Sequence record: PZ154895.1
Strand: one strand, 5' to 3'
Length of the DNA: 64,000 bases
Source: a phage
Position 1 is the stretch's first letter. The number at the start of each line of letters is the position of its first letter. The translations under genes were made by a program, and so were the position numbers. The notes under the pieces were generated by a model. It saw nothing but the letters and a program-made list of their open reading frames with translations. It searched no databases and was not told the DNA's origin. This document shows positions 1,859 through 30,788 of the stretch, piece after piece.

Positions 1859-1874
1859 TTATATAAGGTACTAA

Positions 1875-2735: not shown

Positions 2736-2758
2736 TTAATTATTAATTGTGAGGATAT

Positions 2759-3022: not shown

Positions 3023-3302
3023 ATATAAATCCGACTTTGATGTTAATATTCACCGTGGTACATTTTGGGGAAATTACGTCGGTAAAGATGCTGGCAGCCG
3101 GGAGGCTGCCATTGAATTATTCAAAAAAGATTTTATACGTCGAATTAAATCCGGAGAAATAACTAAAGCACATTTAGAGCCTTTGCGTGGAATGAGGCTA
3201 GGATGCACATGTAAACCAAAGCCATGTCATGGTGATATAATAGCTCATATAGTTAACCGATTGTTTAAAGACGATTTTCAAGTTGAGGACTTATGCAATT
3301 AA
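2976..3302 (+). CDS. hypothetical protein with C-x-C-x5-C-H cluster (DUF4326-like, from memory)
   Basis: 108 aa; GNYVG ... [13 protein letters not shown] motif; overlaps neighbours at both ends. Confidence 0.5.
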
Positions 3303-6288: not shown

Positions 6289-7466
6289 TGTCTACAGTTT
6301 TTAATACAAATCCAGTTGATGTTTTAAAAGAACCTATGTTCTTCGGTTCAGGTCTTGGTATTGCGCGTTATGATATTCAACGTCATAAAGTTTTTGAAGA
6401 TTTAACCGAAAAGCAGTTGTCATTTTTCTGGCGTCCTGAAGAAGTAAACTTGATGATGGATGCTGCACAATTTAACAAGCTTCCTCAGTATCAGCAAGAT
6501 ATTTTTACTAATAACCTGAAGTATCAATCACTTCTAGATAGCATTCAGGGTCGTGCACCGTCTGCAGTACTTATGTCATTAATTTCAGACCCAAGTCTTG
6601 ATACATGGGTTGCTACATGGACTTTTAGTGAAACTATTCACAGTCGTTCATATACTCATATCATGCGAAATCTTTATACTGACCCATCAAAGGTATTTGA
6701 TGAGATTGTATTAGATAAAGCTATTATGAAACGTGCCGAGTCCATTGGTCGCTATTACGATGATGTTCTTAAGAAGACCCGTGAATGGGAAAATGCTAAA
6801 GAATTTGTAGAACTAGCTAAAGAATCTCCTGATGCTGATTTTCGTTTAAATCGAGCTATTAAACAAGAAGCCGAAGCTAAACGAGCGCTAATGAAATCTC
6901 TTTACCTCTGCTTGCATGTAATCAACGCATTGGAAGCTATTCGTTTTTATGTATCTTTCGCATGTACCTTTAACTTCCATAAGAACATGGAAATCATGGA
7001 AGGTAATGCCAAGATTATGAAGTTCATTGCGCGTGATGAGCAACTTCACCTTAAAGGCACCCAATATATTATTCGTCAACTTCAACTTGGCACTGATGGT
7101 GATGAATGGGTTAAAATTGCCCAAGAGTGTGAACAAGAAGCAGTTGATATTTTCATGGAAGTTAACCGTCAAGAAAAAGACTGGGCAGTTCATTTATTTA
7201 AAGATGGTGATGTTCCTGGATTAAATACAAATAGCATGTGGAGCTTTATTGATTACTTAACTGTATCTCGTATGAAACAGTGCGGTCTTCCATGCCCAAT
7301 TACCGATGCTCCGGTTAAACATCCGTATCCTTGGATTCGTGAATACCTTAATTCTGATAATGTTCAATCCGCGCCGCAAGAAGTAGAACTGTCATCTTAC
7401 CTTGTAGCACAGATTGATAATGATGTTGATGATAAAGTTATGATGAGTTTTAAAAAATATTTTTAA
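6288..7466 (+). CDS. nrdB: aerobic ribonucleotide reductase small subunit (uninterrupted, no intron)
   Basis: 392 aa from ATG at 6288 (MSTVFNTNPVD...); start overlaps mobE stop (TAATG); recognised as T4-type NrdB. Confidence 0.9.
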   Translation: MSTVFNTNPVDVLKEPMFFGSGLGIARYDIQRHKVFEDLTEKQLSFFWRPEEVNLMMDAAQFNKLPQYQQDIFTNNLKYQSLLDSIQGRAPSAVLMSLISDPSLDTWVATWTFSETIHSRSYTHIMRNLYTDPSKVFDEIVLDKAIMKRAESIGRYYDDVLKKTREWENAKEFVELAKESPDADFRLNRAIKQEAEAKRALMKSLYLCLHVINALEAIRFYVSFACTFNFHKNMEIMEGNAKIMKFIARDEQLHLKGTQYIIRQLQLGTDGDEWVKIAQECEQEAVDIFMEVNRQEKDWAVHLFKDGDVPGLNTNSMWSFIDYLTVSRMKQCGLPCPITDAPVKHPYPWIREYLNSDNVQSAPQEVELSSYLVAQIDNDVDDKVMMSFKKYF

Positions 7467-14537: not shown

Positions 14538-14545
14538 TATAAATA
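14538..14545 (+). promoter_or_regulatory. late promoter motif TATAAATA upstream of rIII
   Basis: exact tataaata immediately after gene 31 stop. Confidence 0.45.
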
Positions 14546-14663
14546 ATAATATGAATTGAGTTTCAATTCTATGTGGTAGTCTACAACTGAGAGATCTGTC
14601 GAAAGAAGATGAAATTCAGAAGAACGTGACTACCGAGTTTTAATCTCTAACGAGAATTTTTAA

Positions 14664-14912
14664 ATGATTAAACAATTACAACACGCTCTTGAACTGCAAC
14701 GAAACGCATGGAATAATGGTCACGAAAACTATGGCGCATCTATTGATGTTGAAGCCGAAGCTCTTGAAATCCTGCGTTATTTCAAACATCTGAATCCTGC
14801 TCAAACTGCATTAGCCGCTGAGCTTCAGGAAAAAGATGAACTTAAGTATGCTAAGCCTCTGGCTTCTGCTGCACGAAAAGCAGTTCGTCACTTTGTGGTA
14901 ACACTGAAGTAA
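14664..14912 (+). CDS. rIII: lysis inhibition accessory protein rIII
   Basis: 82 aa; MIKQLQHALELQRNAWNNGHENYG... recognised as T4 rIII; synteny next to gene 31. Confidence 0.85.
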   Translation: MIKQLQHALELQRNAWNNGHENYGASIDVEAEALEILRYFKHLNPAQTALAAELQEKDELKYAKPLASAARKAVRHFVVTLK

Positions 14913-15106
14913 TTTATTGGAGAGTCACTGCCTTAGTGTGAAGTTAAAACGAGGAGCCGTCGAACTTTGTTTTACGGTGTACCTCTTGAATGTTGACGAG
15001 GTTTATGGTTATCCTGTCGGTAAATATTCAAAACCTAAGTACCCCTTGAGGGCTTTCGCAGGCAATGCCAATAAGTCCTGCATTTTCATTTAAAAGAGAA
15101 TTTATA

Positions 15107-15283
15107 ATGGCAAAACAAGCTAAAGCAAAGAAAGCAGTTGAAAAGAAAGTTGGTGATTCTAAACGCGCTGGTTACAAGCGTGGGTCGAACTCTCGTATCA
15201 ATCAAACTGTTGAGAAGATCATGCGCCGAGCACGTGCGGTTCTTCGAGATGATGCTTCTCGTTTTGGTAAGCAGAAAGCATAA
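15107..15283 (+). CDS. hypothetical small highly basic protein (58 aa)
   Basis: MAKQAKAKKAVEKK... Lys/Arg-rich; own RBS; strong terminator follows; longer ORF 15065 lacks RBS. Confidence 0.5.
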   Translation: MAKQAKAKKAVEKKVGDSKRAGYKRGSNSRINQTVEKIMRRARAVLRDDASRFGKQKA

Positions 15284-15287
15284 GTTG

Positions 15288-15316
15288 AGGACTCCTTCGG
15301 GAGTCCTTTTTTATTT
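15288..15316 (+). terminator. rho-independent terminator
   Basis: hairpin aggactccttcgggagtcct with UUCG loop followed by tttttatttt. Confidence 0.8.
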
Positions 15317-15336
15317 TCCAAAGATTGCATAAAGTT

Positions 15337-15386
15337 GTTTACAGTATAGTTCCTTTGTGATAGTATTATCTTACACAAACAAAGGA
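15337..15386 (+). promoter_or_regulatory. early-type promoter with imperfect inverted repeat spanning -10
   Basis: gtttac 15337-15342, tagtat 15361-15366; tcctttgtg / cacaaacaaagga arms. Confidence 0.45.
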
Positions 15387-15393
15387 GAATAAA

Positions 15394-15726
15394 ATGAAAA
15401 CGATTAATCTGAACGCCACAGTTAAAACTAAATGCTTCAATGGTAAATATGATGAAACTATGTGGTTCTTAATGGCAGTTGAAGGTGATATTATTGAAGT
15501 AGAAACAACAGAAGGTATGGGAACAGATTTCACCTTTACAATTCAAGTTCATAATTTCTTTACTGGTTGGATTTATGAATTGAATACAGTAATCGTTGGA
15601 AAAATTGAACAAAATGAATTGGGTGAATGGTATTATGTTACAGCTCGCCAACGTGCCGAACGCTTAATTGAGAAGATGAAAAAAGTTGGTAAACTTGACA
15701 TGCAACATTGGAAAGTAGTAAAATAA
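15394..15726 (+). CDS. hypothetical protein (110 aa)
   Basis: ORF with AAGGAG RBS. Confidence 0.5.
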   Translation: MKTINLNATVKTKCFNGKYDETMWFLMAVEGDIIEVETTEGMGTDFTFTIQVHNFFTGWIYELNTVIVGKIEQNELGEWYYVTARQRAERLIEKMKKVGKLDMQHWKVVK

Positions 15727-15728
15727 TT

Positions 15729-15768
15729 GTTTACTTTGGTACAGGATATGATATTATATACCTGTACC
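15729..15768 (+). promoter_or_regulatory. early-type promoter inside inverted repeat ggtacagg/cctgtacc
   Basis: gtttac 15729-15734, -10 tattat about 15752-15757, perfect 8-bp inverted repeat 15738-15745/15761-15768. Confidence 0.5.
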
Positions 15769-15781
15769 GCAATTAAACATC

Positions 15782-16159
15782 TTGGAGAATAAAATGAACT
15801 ACATCAACTTTGAACGTAAATATGTTTCTAATGGTATTGCAGGTTCTATTGATACTATTTGCCTTTGGAAACATCAAAATGGATCAGTATGCGAAATTGA
15901 ACAGTATATGACTCCTAACTACGTTTATATGCGATTTGAAAATGGCATCACGGTTTCAATCACGAAAGAAGGTTCTTCTTTTAAAATCGCATTAGATGAT
16001 GATTTTCGTCAACGTGATTTAGGTACTCATCCTTGCTGGAATGGCGTCAATCGTAAGCTTCTGGTTAAAACTTGGATTCGTCATATTCTGAGTAACAGAG
16101 CTAAACCTGAGCATCTTGAAGCGATCTTTGATGTAGTTCTTAACGAATTTGATATTTAA
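15782..16159 (+). CDS. hypothetical protein (125 aa)
   Basis: ORF with GGAGAAT RBS. Confidence 0.5.
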   Translation: MENKMNYINFERKYVSNGIAGSIDTICLWKHQNGSVCEIEQYMTPNYVYMRFENGITVSITKEGSSFKIALDDDFRQRDLGTHPCWNGVNRKLLVKTWIRHILSNRAKPEHLEAIFDVVLNEFDI

Positions 16160-16169
16160 AATAAAATGA

Positions 16170-16190
16170 GGGGCTTCGGCCCCTTACTGA
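16170..16190 (+). terminator. terminator-like hairpin
   Basis: ggggcttcggcccc with UUCG loop, weak T tract after. Confidence 0.5.
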
Positions 16191-16200
16191 GGAAAATACT

Positions 16201-16488
16201 ATGTTTATGACTACTTATTTTGATACCCGCAAAAATTTCTGTGAAGTGGTTTTCTCTAAGGCGCCTAAAGACCTTCCTGCTCATTTGCAGCCTACTAGTG
16301 AATCGATTAAAAACTATGTTAATGTAGTCTGCCCTTTAGAGTTCCGTACTGTAAATGGCCGCGATACTTTAGCTATCACTAAACTTAATCGTGAAATTGA
16401 CATTGACCCTTCAATTGCGCGCGAAATTAACATTTCTGATATCGGCGGCGGTAATGTTAAATCACACGGTTTTCAGATGAGATTTTAA
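16201..16488 (+). CDS. hypothetical protein (95 aa)
   Basis: ORF with GAGGAAAA RBS. Confidence 0.5.
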   Translation: MFMTTYFDTRKNFCEVVFSKAPKDLPAHLQPTSESIKNYVNVVCPLEFRTVNGRDTLAITKLNREIDIDPSIAREINISDIGGGNVKSHGFQMRF

Positions 16489-16492
16489 TAAA

Positions 16493-16708
16493 ATGTTTAA
16501 GAAATTAATCCAGAAATTACTGGGCACGGAAATGGTCGAAGTTACTTATCGTGTGACTGATGTCTCTCCGCTCACTGAAGACCATTTAGAGCCATATATT
16601 ATGACAATTAAAATGCTTAAACACGATGGCGGATTATCTATTGAAGACCGTTTACCAAGTTATGGTCATTGGGCTGATATTGAAATTATAAGTATTAAAG
16701 ATGTCTGA
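16493..16708 (+). CDS. hypothetical small protein (71 aa)
   Basis: ORF, coupled to next gene. Confidence 0.45.
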   Translation: MFKKLIQKLLGTEMVEVTYRVTDVSPLTEDHLEPYIMTIKMLKHDGGLSIEDRLPSYGHWADIEIISIKDV

Positions 16709-17159
16709 GTTAGAGATTAGAAGCAATTTTAGATGGCCATCATGTGCATTAAGTAATTTCGCCCAATGGCCTTTCGTTATGGATGGCATTCAATTTGGAG
16801 GTCTCGAAGGATTCCTCCAAGGGTGTAAGGTGAAAAATGTTGAACATCAAAGACGTATATTTGGGTTATCCGGGCTTGCCGCCCAACAAGCTGGAAGGTC
16901 TTATGCTAGAGCTCAGGACCGTGGGACCCTCTTCTGGCTTGGAGTTCCGTTTTCAAGATACTCCCCGGCGTGGAAAGAATTATACACAAATGCATATTTT
17001 GAAGCAGCGATCCAAAACAAGGGCTTTCGCGATGCATTACAAGCCTCGAAAGGAAAAGTTTTGAAGCACAGCATGGCTAGTGGTCTAACAAAAGATGATA
17101 CAATACTAACCGAAGCTGAATTTATTGATGTGTTAAACCTATTAAGAGACTCTCTATGA
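16701..17159 (+). CDS. NADAR (YbiA-like) domain protein
   Basis: 152 aa; LSNFAQWPF...DG...EGFLQGCK closely matches the YbiA/NADAR signature FSNFAAWP...DG...EHYFQAQK as I recall it. Confidence 0.65.
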   Translation: MSELEIRSNFRWPSCALSNFAQWPFVMDGIQFGGLEGFLQGCKVKNVEHQRRIFGLSGLAAQQAGRSYARAQDRGTLFWLGVPFSRYSPAWKELYTNAYFEAAIQNKGFRDALQASKGKVLKHSMASGLTKDDTILTEAEFIDVLNLLRDSL

Positions 17160-18019
17160 AGCCAACTATTTTGACTGATATTGATGGAGTATGTTTAAGC
17201 TGGCAATCAGGCCTTCCTTATTTTGCTCAGAAATATAATCTTCCGTTAGAACATATTTTAAAAATGATCCAAGATGAGAAATTTATTTCTCCAGGTAAAC
17301 TCTTTAATTGTGATGAAGAACTTGGTGTCAAGTTAATTGAAAAATACAATCGTTCAGATTTTATTCGTTACTTGTCTCCGTATAAAGATGCCCTGTGTGT
17401 AATTAACAAATTAAAAGAAGATTATAATTTTGTAGCTGTTACAGCATTGGGTGATTCTATTGACGCTCTGTTGAATCGTCAATTTAATTTGAATGCTCTT
17501 TTTCCTGGTGCCTTCTCAGAAGTAATGATGTGTGGTCATGATTCTTCAAAAGAAGAGTTATTCAAAAAGGCAAAAGAGAAATATAACGTAATTTGTTATA
17601 TTGACGATCTCGCTCACCATTGCGATCATGCGAGTGAAATATTAAATGTTCCGGTTTATTGGATGGCTCGAGGAGAGCGTGACAATATTCCAAAAACTGC
17701 GCAGCGAGTTTATACATGGAATGATGTAGAAAATAAGCTTTTTTCACCAAAGGAAAATAAAGAAAGTTTTGATAGTGAAAAAGCTATAAAAGATGTAATT
17801 GAGAAGATGGTTAAAAACGATTCTTTTCGTTGGAACACTACTTGGAGAACTCCTGGATTTAATCCGTATAATCCATATTATACACATCCATATAATCCAT
17901 ATTATACACACCCGTATCATATGAATCCATTCCATACGTGGAGTTATACCAAGCCTGGCGATGCAGGATATTTTAATAGATTTACTAGTGGTGATAATAT
18001 TTTCCAAGGAGCATTCTAA
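17156..18019 (+). CDS. HAD-superfamily phosphatase-like protein with Tyr/Pro/His-rich repeated C-terminus
   Basis: 287 aa; N-terminal DxDG motif LTDIDGV; C-terminal NPYNPYYTHPYNPYYTHPY repeat. Confidence 0.6.
   Translation: MKPTILTDIDGVCLSWQSGLPYFAQKYNLPLEHILKMIQDEKFISPGKLFNCDEELGVKLIEKYNRSDFIRYLSPYKDALCVINKLKEDYNFVAVTALGDSIDALLNRQFNLNALFPGAFSEVMMCGHDSSKEELFKKAKEKYNVICYIDDLAHHCDHASEILNVPVYWMARGERDNIPKTAQRVYTWNDVENKLFSPKENKESFDSEKAIKDVIEKMVKNDSFRWNTTWRTPGFNPYNPYYTHPYNPYYTHPYHMNPFHTWSYTKPGDAGYFNRFTSGDNIFQGAF
17861..17914 (+). repeat. intragenic tandem repeat (2 exact 20-nt copies, period 24)
   Basis: tataatccatattatacaca at 17867-17886 and 17891-17910. Confidence 0.9.
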
Positions 18020-18288
18020 TGTTTGTCGTTCACACTATTTATGAAAATGAAGGTAATACTACACGTGATTACGGTCACGTAAATCAATTTTTTAGATGCA
18101 ATCCAGAATTCCGAGCTCAAAAAGACGAACGAATTTTTAAAAAATGTGTAGAGCAAGGTTTCATTTACGTCAAGCATTGGATGCAAGGAAATAAAGTTAG
18201 AACTACATATCATAAGTCTTTGCCTGAGCTTAATGATGAATTGATTTATAATAGAGCTGTAAACCAAACCTTGAAGGATGAGCAATGA
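18019..18288 (+). CDS. hypothetical protein (89 aa)
   Basis: ATGA-coupled ORF immediately upstream of ligase. Confidence 0.5.
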   Translation: MFVVHTIYENEGNTTRDYGHVNQFFRCNPEFRAQKDERIFKKCVEQGFIYVKHWMQGNKVRTTYHKSLPELNDELIYNRAVNQTLKDEQ

Positions 18289-19748
18289 TTCTTAAAATTC
18301 TGAATGAAATAGCATCTATTAGATCAACTAAGCAGAAGCAAGCAATTCTTGAAAAGAATAAAGATAATGAATTGCTTAAACGAGTATATCGTCTGACTTA
18401 TTCTCGTGGGTTACAGTATTATATCAAGAAATGGCCTAAACCTGGTATTGCTACCCAGAGTTTTGGGATGTTGACCATTACCGATATGCTTGACTTCATT
18501 GAATTCACGTTAGCTACTCGGAAATTAACTGGCAATGCAGCAATTGAGGAATTAACTGGATATATCACTGATGGTAAAAAGGATGATGTTGAAGTTTTGC
18601 GTCGAGTGATGATGCGAGATCTTGAATGCGGTGCTTCAGTATCTATTGCAAACAAAGTTTGGCCAGGTTTAATTCCTGAACAACCTCAAATGCTCGCAAG
18701 TTCTTATGATGAAAAAGGCATTAGTAAGAATATCAAATTTCCAGCTTTTGCGCAGTTAAAAGCAGATGGAGCTCGGTGTTTTGCTGAAGTTCGAGGTGAT
18801 GAATTAGATGATGTTCGTCTTTTATCACGAGCTGGTAATGAATATCTAGGATTAGATCTTCTTAAGGAAGAATTAATCAAAATGACTGCTGAAGCCCGCC
18901 AGATTCATCCAGAAGGTGTGTTAATTGATGGCGAATTGGTATACCATGAGCAAGTTAAAAAGGAACCAGAAGGCCTAGATTTTCTTTTTGATGCTTATCC
19001 TGAAATTAGTAAAGCTAAAGAATTCGCCGAAGTAGCGGAATCTCGTACTACTTCTAATGGAATCGCCAATAAATCCTTAAAAGGAACCATTTCTGAAAAA
19101 GAAGCTCAATGTATGAAGTTTCAGGTCTGGGATTATGTCCCGTTGATAGAAATATACGGTCTTCCGGCGTTTCGTTTAAAATATGATGTACGTTTTTCTA
19201 AACTAGAACAAATGACATCAGGATATGATAAAGTAATTTTAATTGAAAACCAAGTAGTAAATAACCTAGATGAAGCTAAGGTAATTTATAAAAAATATAT
19301 TGACCAAGGTTTTGAAGGTATTATTCTCAAAAATACCGACGGATTGTGGGAAAATGCTCGTTCAAAAAATCTCTATAAATTTAAAGAAGTAATTGATGTT
19401 GATTTAAAAATTGTAGGAATTTATCCTCACCGTAAAGACCCTACTAAAGCGGGTGGATTTATTCTTGAATCAGAGTGTGGAAAAATTAAAGTAAATGCTG
19501 GTTCAGGCTTAAAAGATAAAGCCGGTGTAAAATCGCATGAACTTGACCGTACTCGCATTATGGAAAACCAAAATTATTATATTGGAAAAATTCTAGAATG
19601 TGAATGCAATGGTTGGTTAAAATCTGATGGCCGCACCGATTACGTTAAATTATTTCTTCCGATTGCGATTCGTTTACGTGAAGATAAAACTAAAGCTAAT
19701 ACATTCGAGGATGTATTTGGTGATTTTCATGAGGTAACTGGTCTATGA
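18285..19748 (+). CDS. 30: ATP-dependent DNA ligase
   Basis: 487 aa; adenylation motif KADGAR; recognised as T4 DNA ligase. Confidence 0.95.
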   Translation: MILKILNEIASIRSTKQKQAILEKNKDNELLKRVYRLTYSRGLQYYIKKWPKPGIATQSFGMLTITDMLDFIEFTLATRKLTGNAAIEELTGYITDGKKDDVEVLRRVMMRDLECGASVSIANKVWPGLIPEQPQMLASSYDEKGISKNIKFPAFAQLKADGARCFAEVRGDELDDVRLLSRAGNEYLGLDLLKEELIKMTAEARQIHPEGVLIDGELVYHEQVKKEPEGLDFLFDAYPEISKAKEFAEVAESRTTSNGIANKSLKGTISEKEAQCMKFQVWDYVPLIEIYGLPAFRLKYDVRFSKLEQMTSGYDKVILIENQVVNNLDEAKVIYKKYIDQGFEGIILKNTDGLWENARSKNLYKFKEVIDVDLKIVGIYPHRKDPTKAGGFILESECGKIKVNAGSGLKDKAGVKSHELDRTRIMENQNYYIGKILECECNGWLKSDGRTDYVKLFLPIAIRLREDKTKANTFEDVFGDFHEVTGL

Positions 19749-19933
19749 AAGCTTACTTAGAAACAATTGTCGTTGCTCAAAAAGAAGGTGGAGATGTTTC
19801 TACTTCTGTATCACAAATTATGATTGAATTTATAGATGCATATGCTTATAATAAATTCACAGAAACATTTGATGCCTACGAAAAAGGTCCAAAGTTTGAA
19901 ATATACCGTACTCTCTTACCAATAGATTATTAA
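19745..19933 (+). CDS. hypothetical small protein (62 aa)
   Basis: ATGA-coupled ORF after ligase. Confidence 0.45.
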   Translation: MKAYLETIVVAQKEGGDVSTSVSQIMIEFIDAYAYNKFTETFDAYEKGPKFEIYRTLLPIDY

Positions 19934-19957
19934 AGGCCTTCGGGCCTTTAATTTTAT
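19932..19957 (+). terminator. rho-independent terminator
   Basis: hairpin aaaggccttcgggccttt then aatttta. Confidence 0.7.
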
Positions 19958-19985
19958 AAATAGAATAAACACTAGAGAGGATATG

Positions 19986-22079
19986 ATGGAACTCATTACA
20001 GAATTATTTGACGAAGATACTACTCTTCCGATTACAAACTTAAATCCAAAGAAGAAAATACCACAAATTTTTTCAGTTCATGTTGATGACGCAATTGAAC
20101 AACCAGGCTTTCGTTTATGTACCTATACATCTGGAGGTGATACTAATCGTGATTTAAAGATGGGCGATAAAATGATGCATATTGTTCCTTTTACATTAAC
20201 TGCTAAAGGTTCAATTGCTAAATTAAAAGGTCTCGGTCCAAGCCCAATTAATTACATCAATTCAGTTTTTACTGTTGCAATGCAGACGATGCGTCAGTAT
20301 AAAATTGATGCCTGTATGCTCCGTATTCTTAAGTCTAAAACTGCTGGTCAAGCTCGTCAAATTCAACTTATTGCTGATAGACTTATCCGCAGTCGTTCAG
20401 GTGGCAGATACGTCCTTCTTAAGGAACTCTGGGATTACGATAAAAAGTATGCATATATTCTTATACATCGCAAAAATGTATCACTAGAAGACATTCCAGG
20501 AGTTCCGGAAATTAGCACCGAGCTCTTTACTAAAGTTGAATCGAAGGTCGGTGATGTTTATATCAATAAAGATACTGGAGCTCAAGTAACTAAAAATGAG
20601 GCAATTGCAGCATCTATTGCACAAGAAAATGATAAACGTTCTGACCAAGCTGTAATCGTTAAAGTTAAAATTTCCCGTAGAGCAATTGCGCAAAGTCAGT
20701 CATTGGAATCTTCTAGATTTGAAAGCGAATTATTCCAGAAGTATGAATCTACCGCAGCTAATTTCAATAAACCTGCTACCGCTCCTTTAATTCCCGAAGC
20801 AGAAGAAATGAAGCTTGGAATTAATTCATTAGCTTCTAAAACTAAAGCAGCAAAAATTATTGCCGAAGGAACTGCAGATGAACTTCACTATGACTATAAA
20901 TTCTTTTCAAAAAGTGAGGTTAATGAAGTTTCTGAAAAAATTAAAGATGTAATTCTTAATGCGATTAAAAATGAACCAACTACTTCAATAAAATGTTTAG
21001 AGAAATACGCAGCAGCTGTTAATAAATTCTTTGAAGAATACAAAGATAAATGGCTTGATAAACATAATAAAACCCGTAAAGGACAGCCAGATGAAGTCTG
21101 GGAAGAAATAACTAAAAATTCCTGGAACGCAGCAAAAACTAAATTCCTCAAACGAATGATTTATAGCTTTTCTGGAATTGGTGCAGGTCCAATGATTGAT
21201 ATTACCATTGCACGTGATGGTTCTAAATATACTCCATCGCAAAAGCGCGGTATTAGAGAGTATTGTGGATCAGGATATACTGACATCAATAATCTTCTTT
21301 TAGGCCGCTACAATCCAGAACGATATGATGTAATGAGCGAAAAAGAAATTGAATCTGCGATAAATAATTTAGATTCAGCTTTTGAAAATGGTGACCGTAT
21401 ACCAGAAGGCATTACAGTTTATCGTGCTCAAAGTATGACTGCTCCTATATACGAAGCACTAGTTAAAAATAAAGTGTTCTATTTCAGAAATTTTGTATCT
21501 ACTTCTTTAACTCCTATCATTTTTGGACGTTTTGGAATTACACATGCTGGTATCGGTCTTTTAGAACCAGAAGCTCGTAATGAATTAACAGTTGATAAAA
21601 ATGAAGAAGGAATAACTATTAATCCAAGCGAAATAAGAGCGTATAAAGAAAATCCTGAATACGTTAAAGTTCAAATAGGATGGGCAATTGATGGAGCTCA
21701 TAAAGTTAATGTTGTATATCCAGGAAGTCTCGGAATAGCAACAGAAGCTGAAGTTATTCTACCACGCGGATTGATGGTCAAAGTTAATAAAATAACTGAT
21801 GCTTCTAATAATGATGGAACAACATCTAATAATACAAAACTCATTCAAGCTGAAGTTATGACTACGGAAGAACTCACCGAATCAGTAATTTATGACGGTG
21901 ACCGTCTAATGGAAACCGGCGAAGTAGTTGCAATGACAGGTGATATTGAAATAGAAGACAGAGTTGACTTTGCATCATTTGTTTCATCAAATGTTAAACA
22001 GAAAGTAGAATCATCTCTTGGATTTATTGCGTCTTGCATAGATATTACAAACATGCCTTACAAGTTCGTTCAAGGATAA
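19986..22079 (+). CDS. alt: Alt ADP-ribosyltransferase (head-packaged)
   Basis: about 697 aa; N-terminus MELITELFDEDTTLPITNL; R / STS / E-x-E ART motifs (YRAQ, FVSTSL, EAEVILPRG). Confidence 0.9.
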   Translation: MELITELFDEDTTLPITNLNPKKKIPQIFSVHVDDAIEQPGFRLCTYTSGGDTNRDLKMGDKMMHIVPFTLTAKGSIAKLKGLGPSPINYINSVFTVAMQTMRQYKIDACMLRILKSKTAGQARQIQLIADRLIRSRSGGRYVLLKELWDYDKKYAYILIHRKNVSLEDIPGVPEISTELFTKVESKVGDVYINKDTGAQVTKNEAIAASIAQENDKRSDQAVIVKVKISRRAIAQSQSLESSRFESELFQKYESTAANFNKPATAPLIPEAEEMKLGINSLASKTKAAKIIAEGTADELHYDYKFFSKSEVNEVSEKIKDVILNAIKNEPTTSIKCLEKYAAAVNKFFEEYKDKWLDKHNKTRKGQPDEVWEEITKNSWNAAKTKFLKRMIYSFSGIGAGPMIDITIARDGSKYTPSQKRGIREYCGSGYTDINNLLLGRYNPERYDVMSEKEIESAINNLDSAFENGDRIPEGITVYRAQSMTAPIYEALVKNKVFYFRNFVSTSLTPIIFGRFGITHAGIGLLEPEARNELTVDKNEEGITINPSEIRAYKENPEYVKVQIGWAIDGAHKVNVVYPGSLGIATEAEVILPRGLMVKVNKITDASNNDGTTSNNTKLIQAEVMTTEELTESVIYDGDRLMETGEVVAMTGDIEIEDRVDFASFVSSNVKQKVESSLGFIASCIDITNMPYKFVQG

Positions 22080-22082
22080 ATC

Positions 22083-24140
22083 ATGGAACTTATTACAGAA
22101 TTATTTGACGGCGCTTCGGCGCCGGTTGTTAACTTAAATCCTAAGCATAAAATACCTCAAATTTTTGCTATTCAAGCTGGTGAAGAAAGTGTGCTTCCTG
22201 GATTTAGATTTTGTACATACACCTCTGGCGGTGATACAAATAAAAACGTTAAGCCAGGCGATAAAATGATGCATATCGTAATGATAGGTGTCAATGAGAA
22301 ACTATCATTAGTTAAACTTAAAAGCTTAGGTGGAAATCCAATTGGTGTCATTAATGCGGTTTTTGATACTGCTCTTCAAACAATGAAACAGTATAAAATT
22401 GACGCATGCCTATTCCGCGTACTAAAAAGTAAAACAAATGGCGCTGCTCGTCAAATTCAAGTTATTGCTGACCGTTTAGTACGTACTAAAGGAGCAGGTC
22501 GATATGTTCTTTTAAAGGAAATCTGGGACTATGATAAAAAGTATGCATATATTATGGTTTACCGTAAAAATGCCAATTTAGAAGACATTCCAGGTGTACC
22601 TCCTATTTCAACTGAGTTATTCACAAAAGTTGAATCAAAGGTTGGTGATGTTTATGTAGACGTTAAAACAGGTAATGCTGTTCCTAAAGCTGTTGCTGTT
22701 GCTGCTTCTATTGCTTTAGAAAATGATAAGCGTACAGATCAAGCTGTTATTCAGAAAACTAAAATTAGTCGTCGATTAGCAGCACAAGCTCAATATTCTA
22801 CTGTCGATGCTTCACTTCAGGGCGATAGCTTCGCTGCTAAGAAATATCAAGAGTTTGAATCTAAAGTTCCGGTATATAAAGCAGAAGGACCAATGAACTC
22901 TGGCGTTATTCAGATTGGTTCAAACTTCAGCAAAGGAGCTATCGGTGGTATGAGAAGTGCTTCTCGTTTTAAATCTAACGATTATGAACTAGAAAGCTTC
23001 CGAAATCATATTGCATTGGCCCATGCACGTTTACGTGATCCATCTATTAAATTACAGAGCGATATAACATATCAAGGTTCTCAGGAATATTTAAAGAATA
23101 AAGAATTCTTTGATTATAAAACCGATAAAATTTTGAGCGATCTTGCTGACATTAATATTTCTAATAGCTTTGATGTTATTAAGAAAATTGTCAATGATTT
23201 AGTTAAAGGTTCTAAAGCCACGCCAGATGAAAAGGTAGCTATTATTCAATTTGTCATGAATGGCATTTATAAATTGATTAATGAGTCTGCTTCTCAAGCG
23301 TATGAATATGCAAGTACTGAAGTACCCCCAAAAGGATTAACTCAGGCTGAGTCCGATGTAATTGAAGATTATTGTGCAGATTCATATGTTGAAATGAACT
23401 CGTTCCTCTTGGGTAAACCAGATTCTACTCGTGAAGAATACATGGAACGAGCTATTAAACACATCGAGACGCTGGATTCTGCATTCGCCAAAGGATCAGT
23501 TCTTCCTCCAGGAACTACGCTTTATCGTGGACAAGAAGTTACTTTTAAAACTTTACGCCATAATATTGAAAATAAAATGTTCTATTTCAAGAACTTCGTA
23601 TCAACATCGCTTAAACCAAATATCTTCGGTGAGTATGGTAAAAACTATATGGCTTTAGATGATTCCAGTGCAGTATTTTCTGGTGAAGGAGAAGGTTCAG
23701 TTGATGCTGAAGATTTAATGCATATGGGTAGTCACTCTGCTTATGCGAATGAAGATGCTGAAACTAGCGTGGGTATGGTAATTAAAGGAGCTGAGCGAAT
23801 CAAAGTTATCGTTCCAGGACATTTATCAGGATTTCCATCAGAAGCTGAAGTTATTTTACCGCGTGGAATTTTGCTGAAGATTAATAAAGTGAGTACGTAC
23901 ATGATGAAAGAAACTGCTTATAATAAGTATCTAATCGAAGGCACAATCGTTCCTCCTTCTGAACAATTAGAAGAATCGGTATATGATGGCGACCATCTAA
24001 TGGAAACTGGTGAAGTTCGTCCAATGGCTGGATTTAATCAATTCCTTGTAGAAGAATCAAAAGAAGAGGAAAACGAAGTTTCTCAAATCTTGGCTTCTTT
24101 GGTTAACATCAACGGAATGTCTAAAAAGTTCAAGATGTAG
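22083..24140 (+). CDS. Alt-like ADP-ribosyltransferase paralog
   Basis: 685 aa; same N-terminal propeptide MELITELFD and same R / STS / E-x-E motifs; diverged central region. Confidence 0.85.
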   Translation: MELITELFDGASAPVVNLNPKHKIPQIFAIQAGEESVLPGFRFCTYTSGGDTNKNVKPGDKMMHIVMIGVNEKLSLVKLKSLGGNPIGVINAVFDTALQTMKQYKIDACLFRVLKSKTNGAARQIQVIADRLVRTKGAGRYVLLKEIWDYDKKYAYIMVYRKNANLEDIPGVPPISTELFTKVESKVGDVYVDVKTGNAVPKAVAVAASIALENDKRTDQAVIQKTKISRRLAAQAQYSTVDASLQGDSFAAKKYQEFESKVPVYKAEGPMNSGVIQIGSNFSKGAIGGMRSASRFKSNDYELESFRNHIALAHARLRDPSIKLQSDITYQGSQEYLKNKEFFDYKTDKILSDLADINISNSFDVIKKIVNDLVKGSKATPDEKVAIIQFVMNGIYKLINESASQAYEYASTEVPPKGLTQAESDVIEDYCADSYVEMNSFLLGKPDSTREEYMERAIKHIETLDSAFAKGSVLPPGTTLYRGQEVTFKTLRHNIENKMFYFKNFVSTSLKPNIFGEYGKNYMALDDSSAVFSGEGEGSVDAEDLMHMGSHSAYANEDAETSVGMVIKGAERIKVIVPGHLSGFPSEAEVILPRGILLKINKVSTYMMKETAYNKYLIEGTIVPPSEQLEESVYDGDHLMETGEVRPMAGFNQFLVEESKEEENEVSQILASLVNINGMSKKFKM

Positions 24141-24195
24141 TTTACAAGTCACTCGTGTTGTGTTATAATAATCTTACTGACATAACATGAGGAAC
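24139..24195 (+). repeat. promoter/leader direct repeat copy B
   Basis: gtttacaagtcactcgtgttgtgttataataatcttactgacataacatgagga; matches 9084-9140. Confidence 0.85.
24140..24169 (+). promoter_or_regulatory. early-type promoter (GTTTAC -35, tataat -10)
   Basis: gtttac 24140-24145, tataat 24164-24169. Confidence 0.55.
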
Positions 24196-24200
24196 ACAAA

Positions 24201-24491
24201 ATGAAATCTTCTTTGCGCTTTTTAGGTCAAGAACTCGTAGTTGAAGGCGTTATTCCTGCTGATAACGCTTTTAATGAAGCGGTTTACGACGAATTTATCA
24301 AAATTTTTGGAACAGATAAAAAGTTCGGAATTTTTCCTTCTGAAAATTTTTCAAAGCCAGAACAGACTGAAAGCATTTTCCAAGGTGTAGTAACAGGTAA
24401 ATTTGAGTCAGAAGCTCCGGTAAAAATTGAAGTTTATATTGAAGACAGTTTAGTTGCTTCAGTTGCTGCTTTTATTTCATTCCGTAAATAA
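24201..24491 (+). CDS. hypothetical protein (96 aa)
   Basis: ORF downstream of repeated promoter; GAGGAAC RBS. Confidence 0.5.
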   Translation: MKSSLRFLGQELVVEGVIPADNAFNEAVYDEFIKIFGTDKKFGIFPSENFSKPEQTESIFQGVVTGKFESEAPVKIEVYIEDSLVASVAAFISFRK

Positions 24492-24518
24492 AAATATGGG
24501 GACCTTTCGGTCCCCATT
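24486..24518. terminator. bidirectional terminator between convergent genes
   Basis: hairpin ggggacctttcggtcccc flanked by A-run upstream and T-rich downstream. Confidence 0.7.
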
Positions 24519-24519
24519 G

Positions 24520-25485
24520 TTATATTGCTCCTAATATTTTACTTTGCGAATTGACAATTCCTGTCATAGTATTAATGTTTGAAATGCTTCCTGCAGTTCC
24601 TCCTAATCTACTAAGTCGTGAAAGCGAATTAGATAGTCCAGTAACACCTCCGCTATTTCCGAGAACGCTTTGAATGCCATTTATAGTAGCAGATTCAAGC
24701 CACTCAAGCGCAGCTTGTCTATCAACCGCTCCAGCCTGCATGACTCTATACGCAAAAGTAACATCAAATGTAGTTATTTGGTTATCTCCATCGTATGATA
24801 ACTCAGGAGCGCTCACTGACACCGGAATGCATCCAGTGAACATCACCGCAGTATGAGGTAATCCATTACGAGCATGAAGATTAACCTGAATATCTGCCTC
24901 GACATCTTGTGGCAAAGCACGCAATCCAGTTACTGGGTCTTGAACAGCGTTAACCCAGTCTTGCATCGCACGATAGTTACAAGCTTCTGAATCCATCCTA
25001 AATGAAATAACCAAAGGGTCTAATTCTCTCCCAGTTATACGAATATTAGGAGAATTATAGTTCCAGTCAGTTTCATAGGATAATCTATTCTCTGGCATTT
25101 TTACAGAATATATCATCAATCCAGATGAGTTATATGCCATGTTAAAGAAGTCAATTAAATATGTACCAACTGTAAATGAGCCCAATAAACTTTGAACTGT
25201 ACGTTGACTCATGGCACCAATAAGATATTTACTAACCCCTGATTTTCTTATCAGTTTTTGTGTGCCAGCTGTAATTAGCGTGGTAATTCCCTGATTAATA
25301 TCGCCTTGAGTCAATCCTAACCAATCTGAATTTAGACCCAAGTTATTATAAGAAAAGTTGCTAATTGAACTTATCAACGAAGAGCTTTTAGTTGATGGAG
25401 TTGTCGCAAAAACGCAGCTAAACATATTATTACGTTGGAAATCTGCGTTTATTGCTTGATTATTAAATTCCTCTAAAGAATACAT
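24520..25485 (-). CDS. 54: baseplate tail-tube initiator
   Basis: 321 aa; recognised sequence and T4 order 54-48-29-28-27-51. Confidence 0.9.
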   Translation of the reverse strand: MYSLEEFNNQAINADFQRNNMFSCVFATTPSTKSSSLISSISNFSYNNLGLNSDWLGLTQGDINQGITTLITAGTQKLIRKSGVSKYLIGAMSQRTVQSLLGSFTVGTYLIDFFNMAYNSSGLMIYSVKMPENRLSYETDWNYNSPNIRITGRELDPLVISFRMDSEACNYRAMQDWVNAVQDPVTGLRALPQDVEADIQVNLHARNGLPHTAVMFTGCIPVSVSAPELSYDGDNQITTFDVTFAYRVMQAGAVDRQAALEWLESATINGIQSVLGNSGGVTGLSNSLSRLSRLGGTAGSISNINTMTGIVNSQSKILGAI

Positions 25486-26579
25486 TAAAAAGTCCCCGCA
25501 TATAAAGAAGCACGGTTTAACGTGATAATTTCTCTCATAGTAATCTCAAGAGTAAATGTACTAGGGAGGTTTGGAGCAATAGCTAATCCATTAAAGTTAC
25601 CATTAGGCGTTTTATCAAATCTGATGCTCTGTATTTGGCATGGACCAAATATTTCCGTTTTTCCATCAAACTTAGATGTTGCACCAAAGTTTTTCACCAT
25701 CCAAATTGTCGGGTTTGAAACTACTAGAACGTTAGTTAAGCTCGATGTCATTTTCTCAAATAGTGTTTTATTTTTAGCTGCGTCTTCCGGAGATAAAGGT
25801 TCAATTAACGTAGAACGATACCAATCATCTAAATACCCCTTTATTTCAGCAGCATATTGAGATTTGCCCGTTTCACCATAAGAAAAATAGTTAAAATATT
25901 GATAGATATTAATAATAGCCATTAAATCTTCTGTTGAACGTGGAGTCAAATCCCATGTAAACACTTTAGTTCTATTCTCAGCACCGCCATACATACTTCT
26001 AGCTGTCGTATAAATCTGTTCATTATTATCAGCCATTATACCTTGCGTTATACTTTCCAGTGCCCCAAATACTGCAGTTGAAGCAATATTACTTAACACA
26101 CCAGTAGCAGTACCTCCGCCTCTGCTGATAAGACTTTCTTGAACATCATTAAATCTATGTGATGATGTATCAACGTCAGATTTAGATCTCGGTAAAAGAA
26201 TGTTTGCGACAGGAGCTTTACTTATTGTTCCTGAATTATTGTTTGATATTAATCCATTTGATAGTTTTGATACTGTACTACTAATAGTGTTTCTAGCTGT
26301 ACTTAAAATACTCGAAGATGAAGAAGAGTAGTTAGATCTCATCGATCTAAGACTTCCAGAATCCCTAGATGACATATTGTATGCAGTAAATAATAATCCA
26401 TTCTTATATAGATCTGTTACCTGGAAGTCCCCTGTAGTGTCATTACCACTAGCACGCCCAGTTGGAAACTGGGCAGTGTATGTTTTAGTTACTACTTCTG
26501 ATTTAGTACTCTGTCCGGCTGAAATTTTCTCACCGGACTTTTTAATTAAATCAGCAGTTATTTCTTTAACAATTGCCAT
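25485..26579 (-). CDS. 48: baseplate tail-tube cap
   Basis: 364 aa, same length as T4 gp48; synteny. Confidence 0.9.
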   Translation of the reverse strand: MAIVKEITADLIKKSGEKISAGQSTKSEVVTKTYTAQFPTGRASGNDTTGDFQVTDLYKNGLLFTAYNMSSRDSGSLRSMRSNYSSSSSSILSTARNTISSTVSKLSNGLISNNNSGTISKAPVANILLPRSKSDVDTSSHRFNDVQESLISRGGGTATGVLSNIASTAVFGALESITQGIMADNNEQIYTTARSMYGGAENRTKVFTWDLTPRSTEDLMAIINIYQYFNYFSYGETGKSQYAAEIKGYLDDWYRSTLIEPLSPEDAAKNKTLFEKMTSSLTNVLVVSNPTIWMVKNFGATSKFDGKTEIFGPCQIQSIRFDKTPNGNFNGLAIAPNLPSTFTLEITMREIITLNRASLYAGTF

Positions 26580-26587
26580 ATTATTCC

Positions 26588-28360
26588 TTAATTAACTCCA
26601 GTCGCATCAAATACACCAGGAGCAGTCGTGCTCGTTACGGGTGTCATATTATGAACGACAGTATTTTTCTTAACAACATTATTAGTATTATTGATCGAAG
26701 GAGATGCTTGTTGAACAGGAGCTTGCTGTGCTTTGTTCTTTTCTATTACCTGGACTTGTTTTGCTTCTGGCGATTTAGCAGAAGTTTCAGGTTTGGCATT
26801 AGGCTGATTTTTCTTTAGCTCTTGATAAGTAGCATCAATTTTAGAAAATCTAGCAGCAAGTTCTTTTTTAACTGCCGGTGAATTATTTAAATCCGGGTCA
26901 TCCATCCGTTTTTTAAGGTCTTCATAGGCAGCTTCAACTGATTTAACCGTTGAGTCTTTACTCATATCAGCTGAATCAGCATATTTTTCAAAACGAATCA
27001 TCGCGGCACGGGCTTCATTAGCCTTCATTAAAGCATTTTTTCTTTCTTCTGGTGAAAGTTGCTTTAATTTTTCTTCTTCTGCTGCACGTTCTTCGTCGGT
27101 AGTTAGTGCTTCTTTATTATCAACGCCACGAATCCAGTTAGATGCACGAGTTTTCCAATTAGCAATTTTATCTAATCCTTTTGCTATCGGACCAAGGTCT
27201 CCGTTCATTCGTTTATCTTGATAATTTGCAACTTTTTCCTGGTCTTCTTTATTGAGAGATGCTCCAGTAGAATTTTGGAAATTTTCTAGTGCTCTTCCTT
27301 CTACTTCATCAGCGGTATCCTTCATGCCAGGAATGACTCGAAGAATTGCAGCAGATAATTTAGCCATTCCAAGCTGAATAAGTTCTCCTAAATTATAAAG
27401 AACCTTTCCAAGCCCTTCTACAATAGCTACCGTCAAACCGCCCCAATCTCCCTCTTCCCAGAATTTTTTAATTTCATCAATAGAACTAAAGATGCTCTGT
27501 AATAAAGGACCCCATGTTCCGGTTTCGCTAGAGAATTTAGTAAAGTTTGAACTAAACAAATCCCAAGCCTGCGAAAATTTATCTGACCAATATTTAAAGT
27601 GAACCATCAGCAGATCTATTCCAACAACAACAGCCAATATCATTGCAGTCATTTTAGCAGCTTCAATAGCAGCACTGACGGTATACTTAAATAGCATGCT
27701 TGATATTTTATCAGTAATTGAAATAGATTTCTTAAATCCAAAATCAACAGTCTTCGTTAATTTATCTAAAGCTTGAGATAATTTTAAGTTAAATGCGTCT
27801 TTTTTCTGTTTTTCTTCTGGCGATTCTTGTTTAGGTTCAACTGGCTGAGGGGTAGGGAAAAAATCAGCATCAGGATCATTATTAACTGCTTCAGGAGCCG
27901 GTAATAAAGGACCCACAGATTCAGCTGTATCATCCTCAACAACTTTAACAGGAATAGCGCTTTCAACCGTAGCTAAACTAGTTCCCGTCTGTTGAATTCC
28001 AGCTGTCTGAATTTTTTGTTCTAGTAAACTTGTTAATTTATCTAATTTGCTCCCGAGTGATTCACCGATTTCTTTATTAATATTATTGCCAATTTCGACA
28101 GTTTCAGCAATTAACTCAGAACCGGCAGTAGTATCACTCACTGCGCTTTCTACGTTGTCAATTGCTCCAATTATTTCATTCGATTTTTCTTCGACAGTTT
28201 GAGCAATTAATTCAGAAGCAGCTTGAGCATCATCCAATTTCGTAGATATATCGTTAAGTCCAGATAAAGTGTTAGAAGCGGATTTAGCCGCTTCCTGTGT
28301 TGGTTTATTATCTGAAATAACTTTTCTACGCATCGTTTGCATTTCTTGTGGCTTTTTCAT
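26588..28360 (-). CDS. 29: baseplate hub / tail length determinator
   Basis: 590 aa, same length as T4 gp29; synteny. Confidence 0.9.
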   Translation of the reverse strand: MKKPQEMQTMRRKVISDNKPTQEAAKSASNTLSGLNDISTKLDDAQAASELIAQTVEEKSNEIIGAIDNVESAVSDTTAGSELIAETVEIGNNINKEIGESLGSKLDKLTSLLEQKIQTAGIQQTGTSLATVESAIPVKVVEDDTAESVGPLLPAPEAVNNDPDADFFPTPQPVEPKQESPEEKQKKDAFNLKLSQALDKLTKTVDFGFKKSISITDKISSMLFKYTVSAAIEAAKMTAMILAVVVGIDLLMVHFKYWSDKFSQAWDLFSSNFTKFSSETGTWGPLLQSIFSSIDEIKKFWEEGDWGGLTVAIVEGLGKVLYNLGELIQLGMAKLSAAILRVIPGMKDTADEVEGRALENFQNSTGASLNKEDQEKVANYQDKRMNGDLGPIAKGLDKIANWKTRASNWIRGVDNKEALTTDEERAAEEEKLKQLSPEERKNALMKANEARAAMIRFEKYADSADMSKDSTVKSVEAAYEDLKKRMDDPDLNNSPAVKKELAARFSKIDATYQELKKNQPNAKPETSAKSPEAKQVQVIEKNKAQQAPVQQASPSINNTNNVVKKNTVVHNMTPVTSTTAPGVFDATGVN

Positions 28361-28890
28361 TCAAATAATCCAATAATATTGCCAATTCCGGTTATTGGAC
28401 CATTAGGGCCAGGAATTGCTAAAGTTGTAAAAATATCATTTGCCCATTTTAAAACGAATGCTGGCATCTCAAGAAAATTAATTTCTTTAACTTCATCATT
28501 GACCTTAAGCAAGCACTTGGATAACATATCGCTCACCGTTAAAAATTGTTCAAATTTTCCAGGAGGTCTAAAATAAAATGTATTTCCTTGGTATTGAAAT
28601 TCCAATCTTTGGCATACATAAACATCATTAATGTCATAAGTATAACCATCTATTTCTTTACGAGATTTAATCTTTCCATTAAATTCCAATAAATGAATAG
28701 AAACGAAATCAACTTCTGCCGGTGATAAATTTGGACAAATAGAATCGATCAAAAGTTTTAAATTTTCATCAGGACCTTTAACATCTTTTAAAATGTTATA
28801 GTGTTTAAGACCCATTTTAGGAATAGAAACTTCTTTATTGCTTATTGGAAGAACTACTTTCTTCAGTGGTAGTATCAGATTTAAATTCAT
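28357..28890 (-). CDS. 28: baseplate hub distal subunit
   Basis: 177 aa; synteny. Confidence 0.85.
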
Positions 28891-30010
28891 TTTTAACCTT
28901 AACTGGGTCTATTGTTTCCAGTTTCGTTGCATTAGTGAACATATATAGATGAGTTACTGAATTATTATTGGATAATTCGTGGATAACTTCATCAACGTAA
29001 AATTCTGTTTTAAATTGGTTTTTACTATCATTAAAAATAATTTTAACGCCAGGTGTCAAGTTAAAATTACCGACAGTAGAACATTTAGCATAACCGTCAT
29101 ATTGTGCCATAGTTTGAAGACGAATAGCTTCTTCATATCCATTCCTATAAGTCATTTCAGAATAAGCACCTGACCTTGACACTACAATAGAGTTTTCTCC
29201 TTTTCCTGTAGTAATCATTGGCAATGAAGAATCTAAAAATGAATGCGCGTAGATAGTAGCGTTTTTCATTGGGTCGCGTTTGTGAGGATTCGATTTAGTC
29301 AACCAAACGAAATCATATGCTAATGGATATTTTAATTCTTGGATGAATTGACCTATTAAAGATGGCTCACCGACAATCATTGGATACGGTTCTTGATTTA
29401 TCATCATATCATAGTCCATCATGTTAACTCCCATGATGTCTTGCCATACAAATACAAATTTGTCACTTCCTACAGCTAGAGCAACTTCTCTAACATATGA
29501 CAAATAGTTTTCAAATGTGCTAGTCCACGGAATATCAGGAACATAAGCATTTATAGCATTTATTGCTGGAGTTAATAATGTGCGATCTTGATAAATGACA
29601 CCAAGCATTTCTTTTATAGATTCACCTGCATCAGGGAAAAATGGTCTGCCAAATTTAAGATTTTCTATAGAATGAATAGTTCCCAATTCAATAGCAATGA
29701 TGTTATCACCCTTTGAATCTACTGACACGGAAAAATGCTTACATCCATAAATTCTTGTTTTAACATTATTAATATCGTTTGCATTAGCTACAGAAATCTG
29801 AATTATTTCATTTCCATCCATTTTTGTATGGATATTTTTAGAATCATAAAACTGCAGCATTCCTTCATTTCGGCCATAAAGAGAATCCCGCATAGTTAAT
29901 GTGGTAATAGTAGCAGCTAATTCAACAAATCTATTATTACTCCAAGCGTCGTAGCTATCAAATAATTTAACGCTGAGATTTGGATATCCTGGGCGTTGCA
30001 ACATACTCAT
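28835..30010 (-). CDS. 27: baseplate hub subunit
   Basis: 391 aa; synteny. Confidence 0.9.
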
Positions 30011-30759
30011 TATTGTTTATCCTTCTCAATCAGTTTTAATACGAATCCGCGCTCGGCAGGAATCATTTTCATTATTGAATTTAAACTATAATTACTTTTT
30101 ACGAGTGTGTGATTAATTTGATAAAAAGTAAATATCTCATCTGGGTTAACTAATAGCTTAAACACATCTACTATATCAGTGTATTTTTTTACATACTTAT
30201 CACAGCAGGACATGTGTAGCGTTAAATTAATAGGATTCATTGCATCGAGAATTTTTTCTAATGTTTCTATCTCGATGGCATCAACAAGTTCTATTTGACT
30301 TGATTCGCTAATTTCCTTCCAATCATACCACATTTCATCTACTTGAACAGAATGAATATTTTCAGTAATCATCTTTGCTTTATTTTCATAAAACTCAGAA
30401 GGAAACTTTAATTTAATTTTAACATTAGCTACATCAAAAACAGGTTCCTTTAATTCTTTTTGATATATTTCAAATGGAACTGTCTTTTCCTTTTTACATT
30501 TTGGACATACAAATGTGACTGGTACTTTAGTTTTACCTATTGACCCTACAAATACCTGCAAAAATATAAATGGTTGCCAAGTCTTTGGATAGTCTCCAAA
30601 ATAATCAGCAATTAAATCAGCAATTATTTCTTTTTGTTCTTGTGGTGACCGATGTTCTATATCGTTTCGAACTAACAAAAAATCTCGATAATCTTCTACC
30701 GTAAATGGTTTAAAACGATGAACACCATCTGGTAATTTACAACGAATAATGTTTGCCAT
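30010..30759 (-). CDS. 51: baseplate hub assembly catalyst
   Basis: 249 aa; synteny. Confidence 0.85.
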
Positions 30760-30776
30760 AGATGCTCCTTTTATTC

Positions 30777-30788
30777 TATTTATAAATA
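30777..30788. promoter_or_regulatory. overlapping divergent late promoters (TATAAATA on both strands)
   Basis: tatttataaata: + strand tataaata 30781-30788 for gene 26, - strand tataaata 30777-30784 for gene 51. Confidence 0.7.

Follow-up and report, generated by a model that had tools for sequence, protein, structure and literature searches.

The textbook case of an enzyme injected alongside phage DNA is Alt, and nearly all that is known of it comes from T4, where it sits inside the phage head and acts as an arginine-specific mono-ADP-ribosyltransferase. In the stretch of phage DNA analyzed here (sequence record PZ154895.1, 64,000 nucleotides, referred to below as the window), a segment corresponding to a T4-like (Tequatrovirus) genome was found to carry the usual alt gene together with an intact second copy. 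The two adjacent open reading frames (ORFs) were as described in the initial annotation, with respect to both coordinates and lengths in amino acids (aa):

19986-22079, + strand: ORF1 ("Alt1", the alt ortholog), 697 aa
22083-24140, + strand: ORF2 ("Alt2", the second Alt paralog), 685 aa

The frame of ORF1 spans 19983/19986-22079, and the 697-aa form starting with MELITE begins at the second ATG, at 19986. The position of the locus, between ligase/alt.1 and alt.-3/gene 54, matched the gene order of T4, T2, T6 and RB14. Duplications of alt were noted in 2006 and the tandem pair is already known; as a genomic observation it holds nothing new, since both genes had been annotated. What is added here is the evolutionary polarity of the locus with the exact breakpoints in T4, the presence of a C-terminal processing site in both copies, and the constraint acting on the second copy.

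ORF1 and ORF2 were 41% identical over 718 columns (BLASTP, E=4e-159), a similarity so far above chance that the two are paralogs. Both proteins matched PF03496 (ADPrib_exo_Tox) above the gathering cut-off of 23.4 bits (ORF1, 129.3 bits, 1.5e-37; ORF2, 72.8 bits, 3e-20) and both matched PHROG 802 ("Alt-like RNA polymerase ADP-ribosyltransferase"), ORF1 over residues 1-696 (7e-272) and ORF2 over residues 1-685 (3e-255). No model in NCBIfam matched either protein. No solved Alt structure was found; the best sequence match in the PDB was to CDTa (E=4e-4), with the R and E-x-E motifs of ORF1 aligning to those of the toxin component. The initial annotation had stated that the R / STS / E-x-E residues of an ADP-ribosyltransferase (ART) are kept in both copies, and careful alignment revealed no loss of a catalytic residue in either ORF: YRAQ was located at 479 in ORF1 and YRGQ at 481 in ORF2, STS at 505 and 507 respectively, and EAEVILPRG at 587 in both. 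The corresponding codons are:

21423-21425, + strand: ORF1 R480
21498-21506, + strand: ORF1 STS505-507
21744-21752, + strand: ORF1 EAE587-589
23526-23528, + strand: ORF2 R482
23601-23609, + strand: ORF2 STS507-509
23841-23849, + strand: ORF2 EAE587-589

In an alignment of 19 sequences R482, S507, S509, E587 and E589 (ORF2 numbering) were invariant. Among 57 full-length representatives of the Alt family, obtained by searching 1.84 billion proteins, R482, S507, E587 and E589 were present in every member and S509 in all but one (56/57). The AlphaFold model of ORF2 (predicted local distance difference test score, pLDDT, 76; predicted template modelling score, pTM, 0.68) consisted of an alpha/beta N-terminal domain (~10-215), a helical centre (~250-415), an ART domain (~420-625) and a low-confidence C-terminal tail, and its best matches in the PDB were Vis, C3, Certhrax, CDTa and VIP2 (Foldseek E 1e-7 to 1e-4). 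The sequence evidence supports both ORFs as Alt-type ADP-ribosyltransferases of the Alt/VIP2 clade, with a C3/VIP2-type ART domain and intact R-S-E residues. In C3-like transferases an E-x-E motif, rather than Q-x-E, predicts specificity for arginine, and both proteins are accordingly predicted to be arginine-specific, with host targets such as the RNA polymerase alpha subunit among their substrates.

The two proteins have the same architecture, with a propeptide at either end (a slash marks the cleavage point):

N-terminal propeptide: ORF1 residues 1-6 (ITE6/L); ORF2 residues 1-6
N domain: ORF1 residues 7-238; ORF2 residues 7-238
Centre: ORF1 residues 239-410, variable; ORF2 residues 239-415, helical and variable
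ART domain: ORF1 residues ~411-629; ORF2 residues 416-628
C-terminal site: ORF1 L630-T-E632/S; ORF2 L629-E-E631/S
C-terminal propeptide: ORF1 residues 633-697; ORF2 residues 632-685

The shared N-terminus MELITELFD had been proposed to lie in a prohead-protease context, and indeed MELITE/LFD is the ITE-6 site of T4 Alt (PMC5694885). By mass spectrometry, gp21 cuts that protein twice, taking off 6 residues at ITE-6 and a further 63 at LTE-619 (PMC5694885). The C-terminal site, which the initial annotation had missed, reads L630-T-E632/SVIYDGD in ORF1 and L629-E-E631/SVYDGD in ORF2. Across the same 57 family members, [LI]-x-E followed by [VAL]-F was present near the N-terminus in 55, and [LIV]-x-E followed by S-x-YDGD in 56. 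Evidence for the Alt N domain (aa ~7-238) came from PF26846, a precomputed Pfam family on database relatives of 98% identity, and this domain was 99% (ORF1) and 67% (ORF2) identical to that of T4 Alt. A GNAT-like acetyltransferase fold was considered for the N domain and rejected for want of a strong structural match together with a conserved acetyl-CoA-binding motif.

The Alt N domain was also recognized in other proteins. By sequence it was present in P0201 (485 aa), P0217 (541 aa) and P0232 (1142 aa), each without a Pfam ART domain, and by predicted structure (BFVD) in uncharacterised proteins of Ackermannviridae-like, Vibrio and Agrobacterium jumbo phages. Some of the BFVD matches carry a Zeta toxin, a deaminase or ParB/sulfiredoxin (E 1e-6 to 5e-3, 10-16% identity). 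The N domain may be a general head-delivery module for varied cargoes.

With respect to expression, the following signals were located at the two start sites:

19934-19949, + strand: probable terminator read from the sequence, a GC-rich hairpin AAAGGCCTTCGGGCCTTT followed by a T-rich run
19955-19962, + strand: T4-type late promoter box TATAAATA, 24 nt before the ORF1 start codon
22073-22077, + strand: ORF2 Shine-Dalgarno sequence AAGGA, within the final codons of ORF1

The hairpin and T-run at 19934-19949 were not listed by a strict consensus terminator scan; they probably close the upstream gene 30 / alt.1 unit, and a conserved predicted terminator upstream of alt has been reported (Nolan et al. 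2006). The box TATAAATA at 19955-19962 was the sole late promoter box within 14538-30777, and T4 alt is expressed late (PMC9697503). The stop codon of ORF1 occupies 22077-22079 with the ATG of ORF2 3 nt after it, and scans for promoter boxes and terminators found neither at the ORF1/ORF2 junction. The most economical reading of these signals is that ORF1 and ORF2 would be carried on one late bicistronic message from TATAAATA. Within ORF2 a UUCG loop closed by a perfect GC-rich stem of 6 bp (CGGCGCTTCGGCGCCG) was observed at 22109-22124 (+ strand, codons 9-14); ORF1 has no such stem. The stem is probably present in T4 alt.-1 as well, judging by the identical encoded peptide. As a regulatory candidate this hairpin was set aside, its folding energy being not significant against shuffled sequences (z = -1.6).

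Identity between ORF1 and ORF2 was distributed unevenly, being 100% over residues 1-6, 67% over 7-238, 21.5% over 239-410, 37% over 411-620 and 41% in the C-terminal tail. The strongly diverged centres that had been pointed out at the outset were thus borne out by the regional alignment and by hhalign. The latter, which set the profile of the Alt2-lineage centres (6 sequences) against that of the Alt1-lineage centres (4 sequences), returned a probability of 0.2%, which is weak negative evidence because both alignments were shallow. Homology of the two centres was not retained as a conclusion, and they are either non-homologous or diverged past detection. The ART domains were also substantially diverged (37%). 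A diverged centre is not special to this pair, since it is found family-wide and again between ORF1 and T4 Alt (32%): the 57 members had mean pairwise identities of 39% (N domain), 11% (centre), 33% (ART domain) and 31% (C-terminal part). The length of the centre varied from 117 to 193 residues in these members, and many database relatives aligned as two stretches with the centre skipped. Possible roles for the centre are target recognition, spacing, or something connected with life inside the head. A further difference was observed in the stretch just before E-x-E (..LGIATEAE in ORF1 and ..SGFPSEAE in ORF2), which by analogy with C3-like toxins would be the ADP-ribosylating toxin turn-turn (ARTT) substrate-recognition loop. 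Read in this way, the difference in the putative loop argues for different substrates at least as well as the diverged centre does.

Comparison with T4 gave the locus its polarity. The T4 genes alt.-1 and alt.-2 (61 and 67 aa "hypothetical proteins"; PHROGs 23015 and 15247), which the T4 record calls "an old duplication of the first part of gene alt", read along the N-terminus of ORF2, and both PHROGs matched ORF2 far better than ORF1. T4 DNA was 96% identical to window positions 22041-22430, that is through the first ~116 codons of ORF2, and then jumped to 24121-24520. T4 lacks window positions 22431-24120 and has an internal stop, whereas ORF2 is intact. A 9-bp direct repeat was present at each endpoint:

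22422-22430, + strand: left copy of CTAAAAAGT, left endpoint of the T4 deletion
24121-24129, + strand: right copy of CTAAAAAGT, right endpoint of the T4 deletion

Measured from one left-hand edge to the other, the copies are separated by 1,699 bp, and because CTAAAAAGT lies at both breakpoints we conclude that a short-repeat deletion removed 1,699 bp of a full-length second alt from T4. The genes alt.-1 and alt.-2 are the leftovers of that full-length gene. When an 80-nt probe of the T4 junction was compared with phage records, 90 spanned it and ~380 others matched one half only, being undeleted. Having both genes is the usual condition in the genus, and T4 is a deletion derivative keeping only Alt1.

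The first gene has its own history. T4 Alt (gpAlt, NP_049811, 682 aa) is encoded at the position matching ORF1, between alt.1 and alt.-3/gene 54, and the two share the ITE-6 and LTE cleavage motifs, the R-S-E residues and the late promoter. They are 99% identical over residues 7-238 and 92-100% identical in the C-terminal part, and differ in the centre (aa 239-410, 32% identity) and the ART domain (65%). Synonymous divergence (dS) between ORF1 and T4 alt reached 1.1-1.35 in the centre and ART segments against 0.11 in the N domain, and for this reason ORF1 is a mosaic alt allele and not a simple ortholog. At least two allelic classes of alt were observed within Tequatrovirus, with near-identical ends and a dS above 1 in the centre and ART segment. 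In SHFML-26 a T4-type alt allele occupies the ORF1 position and adjoins an intact ORF2; alt and ORF2 therefore reassort independently.

A megablast search with the 4.8-kb region returned 356 records with at least 80% coverage, many of them annotated "Alt-like RNA polymerase ADP-ribosyltransferase (x2)", and ORF2 was present at 95% protein identity or higher in 397 records. T2 and T6 carry the pair at 97.5-98.7% identity to the window, as does RB14, in which ORF2 identity was 97.4%. The ORF2 orthologs of these three phages are labelled alt.-2 or hypothetical protein (alt.-2 in RB14; "alt.-2, apparent insertion... also similar to alt" in T6), and RefSeq often labels both genes "Alt-like". A literature search for "alt.-2" yielded one relevant paper only, in which alt.-1/alt.-2 and a full-length duplicate in phage 44RR were listed as alt paralogs (Nolan et al. 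2006). T4 is thus atypical, in that most Tequatroviruses, including T2 and T6, keep a second, intact and strongly conserved Alt paralog.

The duplication is old. The dS between the paralogs ORF1 and ORF2 was saturated (~1.2-1.3), and a gene of the Alt2 lineage adjoins alt.-3 in Dhakavirus WG01 and JS10, matching the position of ORF2; from these two observations the duplication predates the split between Tequatrovirus and Dhakavirus. Recent gene conversion between the paralogs was ruled out by a dS of 1.32 in the shared N domain. Measured against the RB14 and SHFML-26 orthologs, the ratio of nonsynonymous to synonymous substitution (dN/dS) of ORF2 was 0.03-0.055 at a dS of ~0.2, and that of its ART domain alone was 0.016-0.039. 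ORF2 is under strong purifying selection.

The reading we favor, to which we assign a probability of roughly 0.6, is that the locus is a two-gene late operon whose products, two old Alt paralogs, would be made late, packaged, trimmed and injected to ADP-ribosylate host arginines, with T4 as the derivative. Its steps are modelled on T4 Alt, of which each head contains ~40 copies that enter the host along with the DNA. Both Alt proteins would be made late and enter the prohead scaffolding core, where gp21 would trim each at both ends, leaving about 626 and 625 residues. The trimmed proteins would remain in the head and be injected with the DNA, and within the first seconds of infection both would move ADP-ribose from NAD+ onto arginines of host proteins. 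For ORF2 we infer packaging and processing like that of T4 Alt from its motifs and from the analogy with that protein. More tentatively, the substrates of Alt1 and Alt2 may overlap only in part, because the centres are unrelated, the ART domains are 37% identical and the stretch preceding E-x-E differs.

Several points weigh against this reading. The motif [LI]-x-E is short, occurring 10 times in ORF1 and 7 times in ORF2, so that on its own it is no proof of cleavage and the argument is one of positional conservation. T4 is fully viable without ORF2, and in T4 even alt is non-essential; the contribution of ORF2 may therefore be small or conditional. The suggestion of different targets is an argument from divergence only. 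In addition, a search of the literature available found no experimental study of ORF2 or its orthologs. A search of the literature on virion proteomics with two Alt proteins likewise found nothing relevant, and in a Morganella T4-like phage one Alt homolog was detected in virions.

Two other explanations carry some weight, each of them improbable in our judgement. ORF2 might be an active ART that is not packaged and acts late inside the producing cell on host or phage proteins. That ARTs of this clade can act unpackaged is illustrated by T4 ModA and ModB, and the literature search turned up no virion data for ORF2. ORF2 nonetheless retains the Alt N domain in full, at 67% identity to that of Alt1, and both family-conserved gp21 motifs at the homologous positions, features with no obvious role in an unpackaged enzyme, and a late promoter is predicted to drive it together with the gene of a known head protein. 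Equally probable is the explanation that ORF1 and ORF2 are redundant, the duplication raising the dose of one activity and ORF2 being dispensable. It would account for the loss of ORF2 from T4 and from about 90 related records, and the E-x-E motif in both proteins, which predicts arginine specificity for each, also speaks for it. The duplication is nevertheless ancient, with saturated dS and an origin before the Tequatrovirus/Dhakavirus split, strong purifying selection acts on both copies in about 400 genomes, and dosage duplicates would not be expected to persist with unrelated centres and ART domains of 37% identity.

The remaining explanations are very unlikely. Modification of RNA or DNA by ORF2, or the attachment of NAD-capped RNA to proteins in the manner of T4 ModB, draws on the fact that ModB, of the same R-S-E clade, performs RNAylation (PMC10468400), yet the E-x-E motif and the close kinship with Alt favor protein-arginine modification. 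That ORF2 is a head or internal protein, catalytically dead or repurposed and enzyme-like in looks only, can hardly be reconciled with its full set of family-invariant catalytic residues, an ART domain dN/dS of 0.016-0.039 and a model that folds as a C3/Vis-like ART.

If Alt2 is packaged and active as the favored two-enzyme reading proposes, a typical T-even phage delivers more ADP-ribosylating enzymes as infection begins than the T4 model implies. An extension of this reading, namely that Alt2 has targets of its own (possibly a defence or stress protein and not RNA polymerase), that its absence bears on the host behavior of T4, and that the Alt locus is a cassette system, is speculative when all parts are taken jointly, and we hold it to be doubtful. 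Were it true, loss of Alt2 through the 1.7-kb deletion would be one reason why, on some hosts, T4 behaves unlike T2, T6 and the majority of wild T-even phages, and the Alt locus would combine a constant head-delivery N domain and processing sites with swappable centre-plus-ART modules in an arms race.

The genes flanking the pair are arranged as follows:

Upstream of ORF1, + strand, in order: 30.3, 30.2, 30.1, DNA ligase (18285-19748) and alt.1 (19745-19933)
24201-24491, + strand: alt.-3 homolog, downstream of ORF2
Beyond alt.-3, minus strand: genes 54, 48 and 29

The alt.-3 homolog encodes 96 aa (PHROG 1739). A strong sigma-70-like promoter site (24141-24169; TTTACA-17-TATAAT with an upstream TG, 11/12 matches) was observed directly after the ORF2 stop, and a bidirectional terminator (24496-24517) after the alt.-3 homolog. 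The mutations by which T4 escapes the CmdTAC defence system extend Alt.-3 at its C-terminus (PMC11618068). The gene 30.2 homolog (17156-18019, + strand) carries a short tandem peptide repeat (NPYNPYYTHPYNPYYTHPY...) at its C-terminus. It encodes 287 aa compared with the 837 bp (278 codons) of the T4 gene, which suggests repeat expansion.

Among known systems, the closest counterpart of ORF2 is the 685-aa gene of T2 (T2_202), T6 and RB14, which occupies the same position at 97.4-99.6% protein identity. By this comparison ORF2 of the window is one more allele of that gene, with nothing substantive to set it apart. T4 Alt and ORF2 are more distant, with 41-42% identity overall and centres without similarity (10% over aligned columns). 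Tandem Alt arrays in other Tevenvirinae (three genes in Dhakavirus WG01; alta/altb in the GenBank record of JS98; ORF187c of 44RR) share the locus and architecture of the pair, and the gene beside alt.-3 belongs to the ORF2 lineage at 44-48% identity including the centre. These arrays differ from the pair in copy number and in the identity of the extra copies. In WG01 the three tandem Alt-like genes (1012-7124; 631, 693 and 707 aa) each encode an L-N-E/V-F N-terminal motif.

T4 ModA and ModB are small enzymes of about 200 aa that are expressed early. They fall in the same R-S-E ART clade as the Alt pair and are not injected from the head; they are without the Alt N domain and the propeptides, whereas ORF1 and ORF2 have both. 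The C3 exoenzyme, Vis, Certhrax and the iota/CDTa/VIP2 components have the same catalytic fold and the same R / STS / E-x-E arrangement as the two Alt proteins, but are secreted bacterial toxins with other delivery domains and 12-20% sequence identity.

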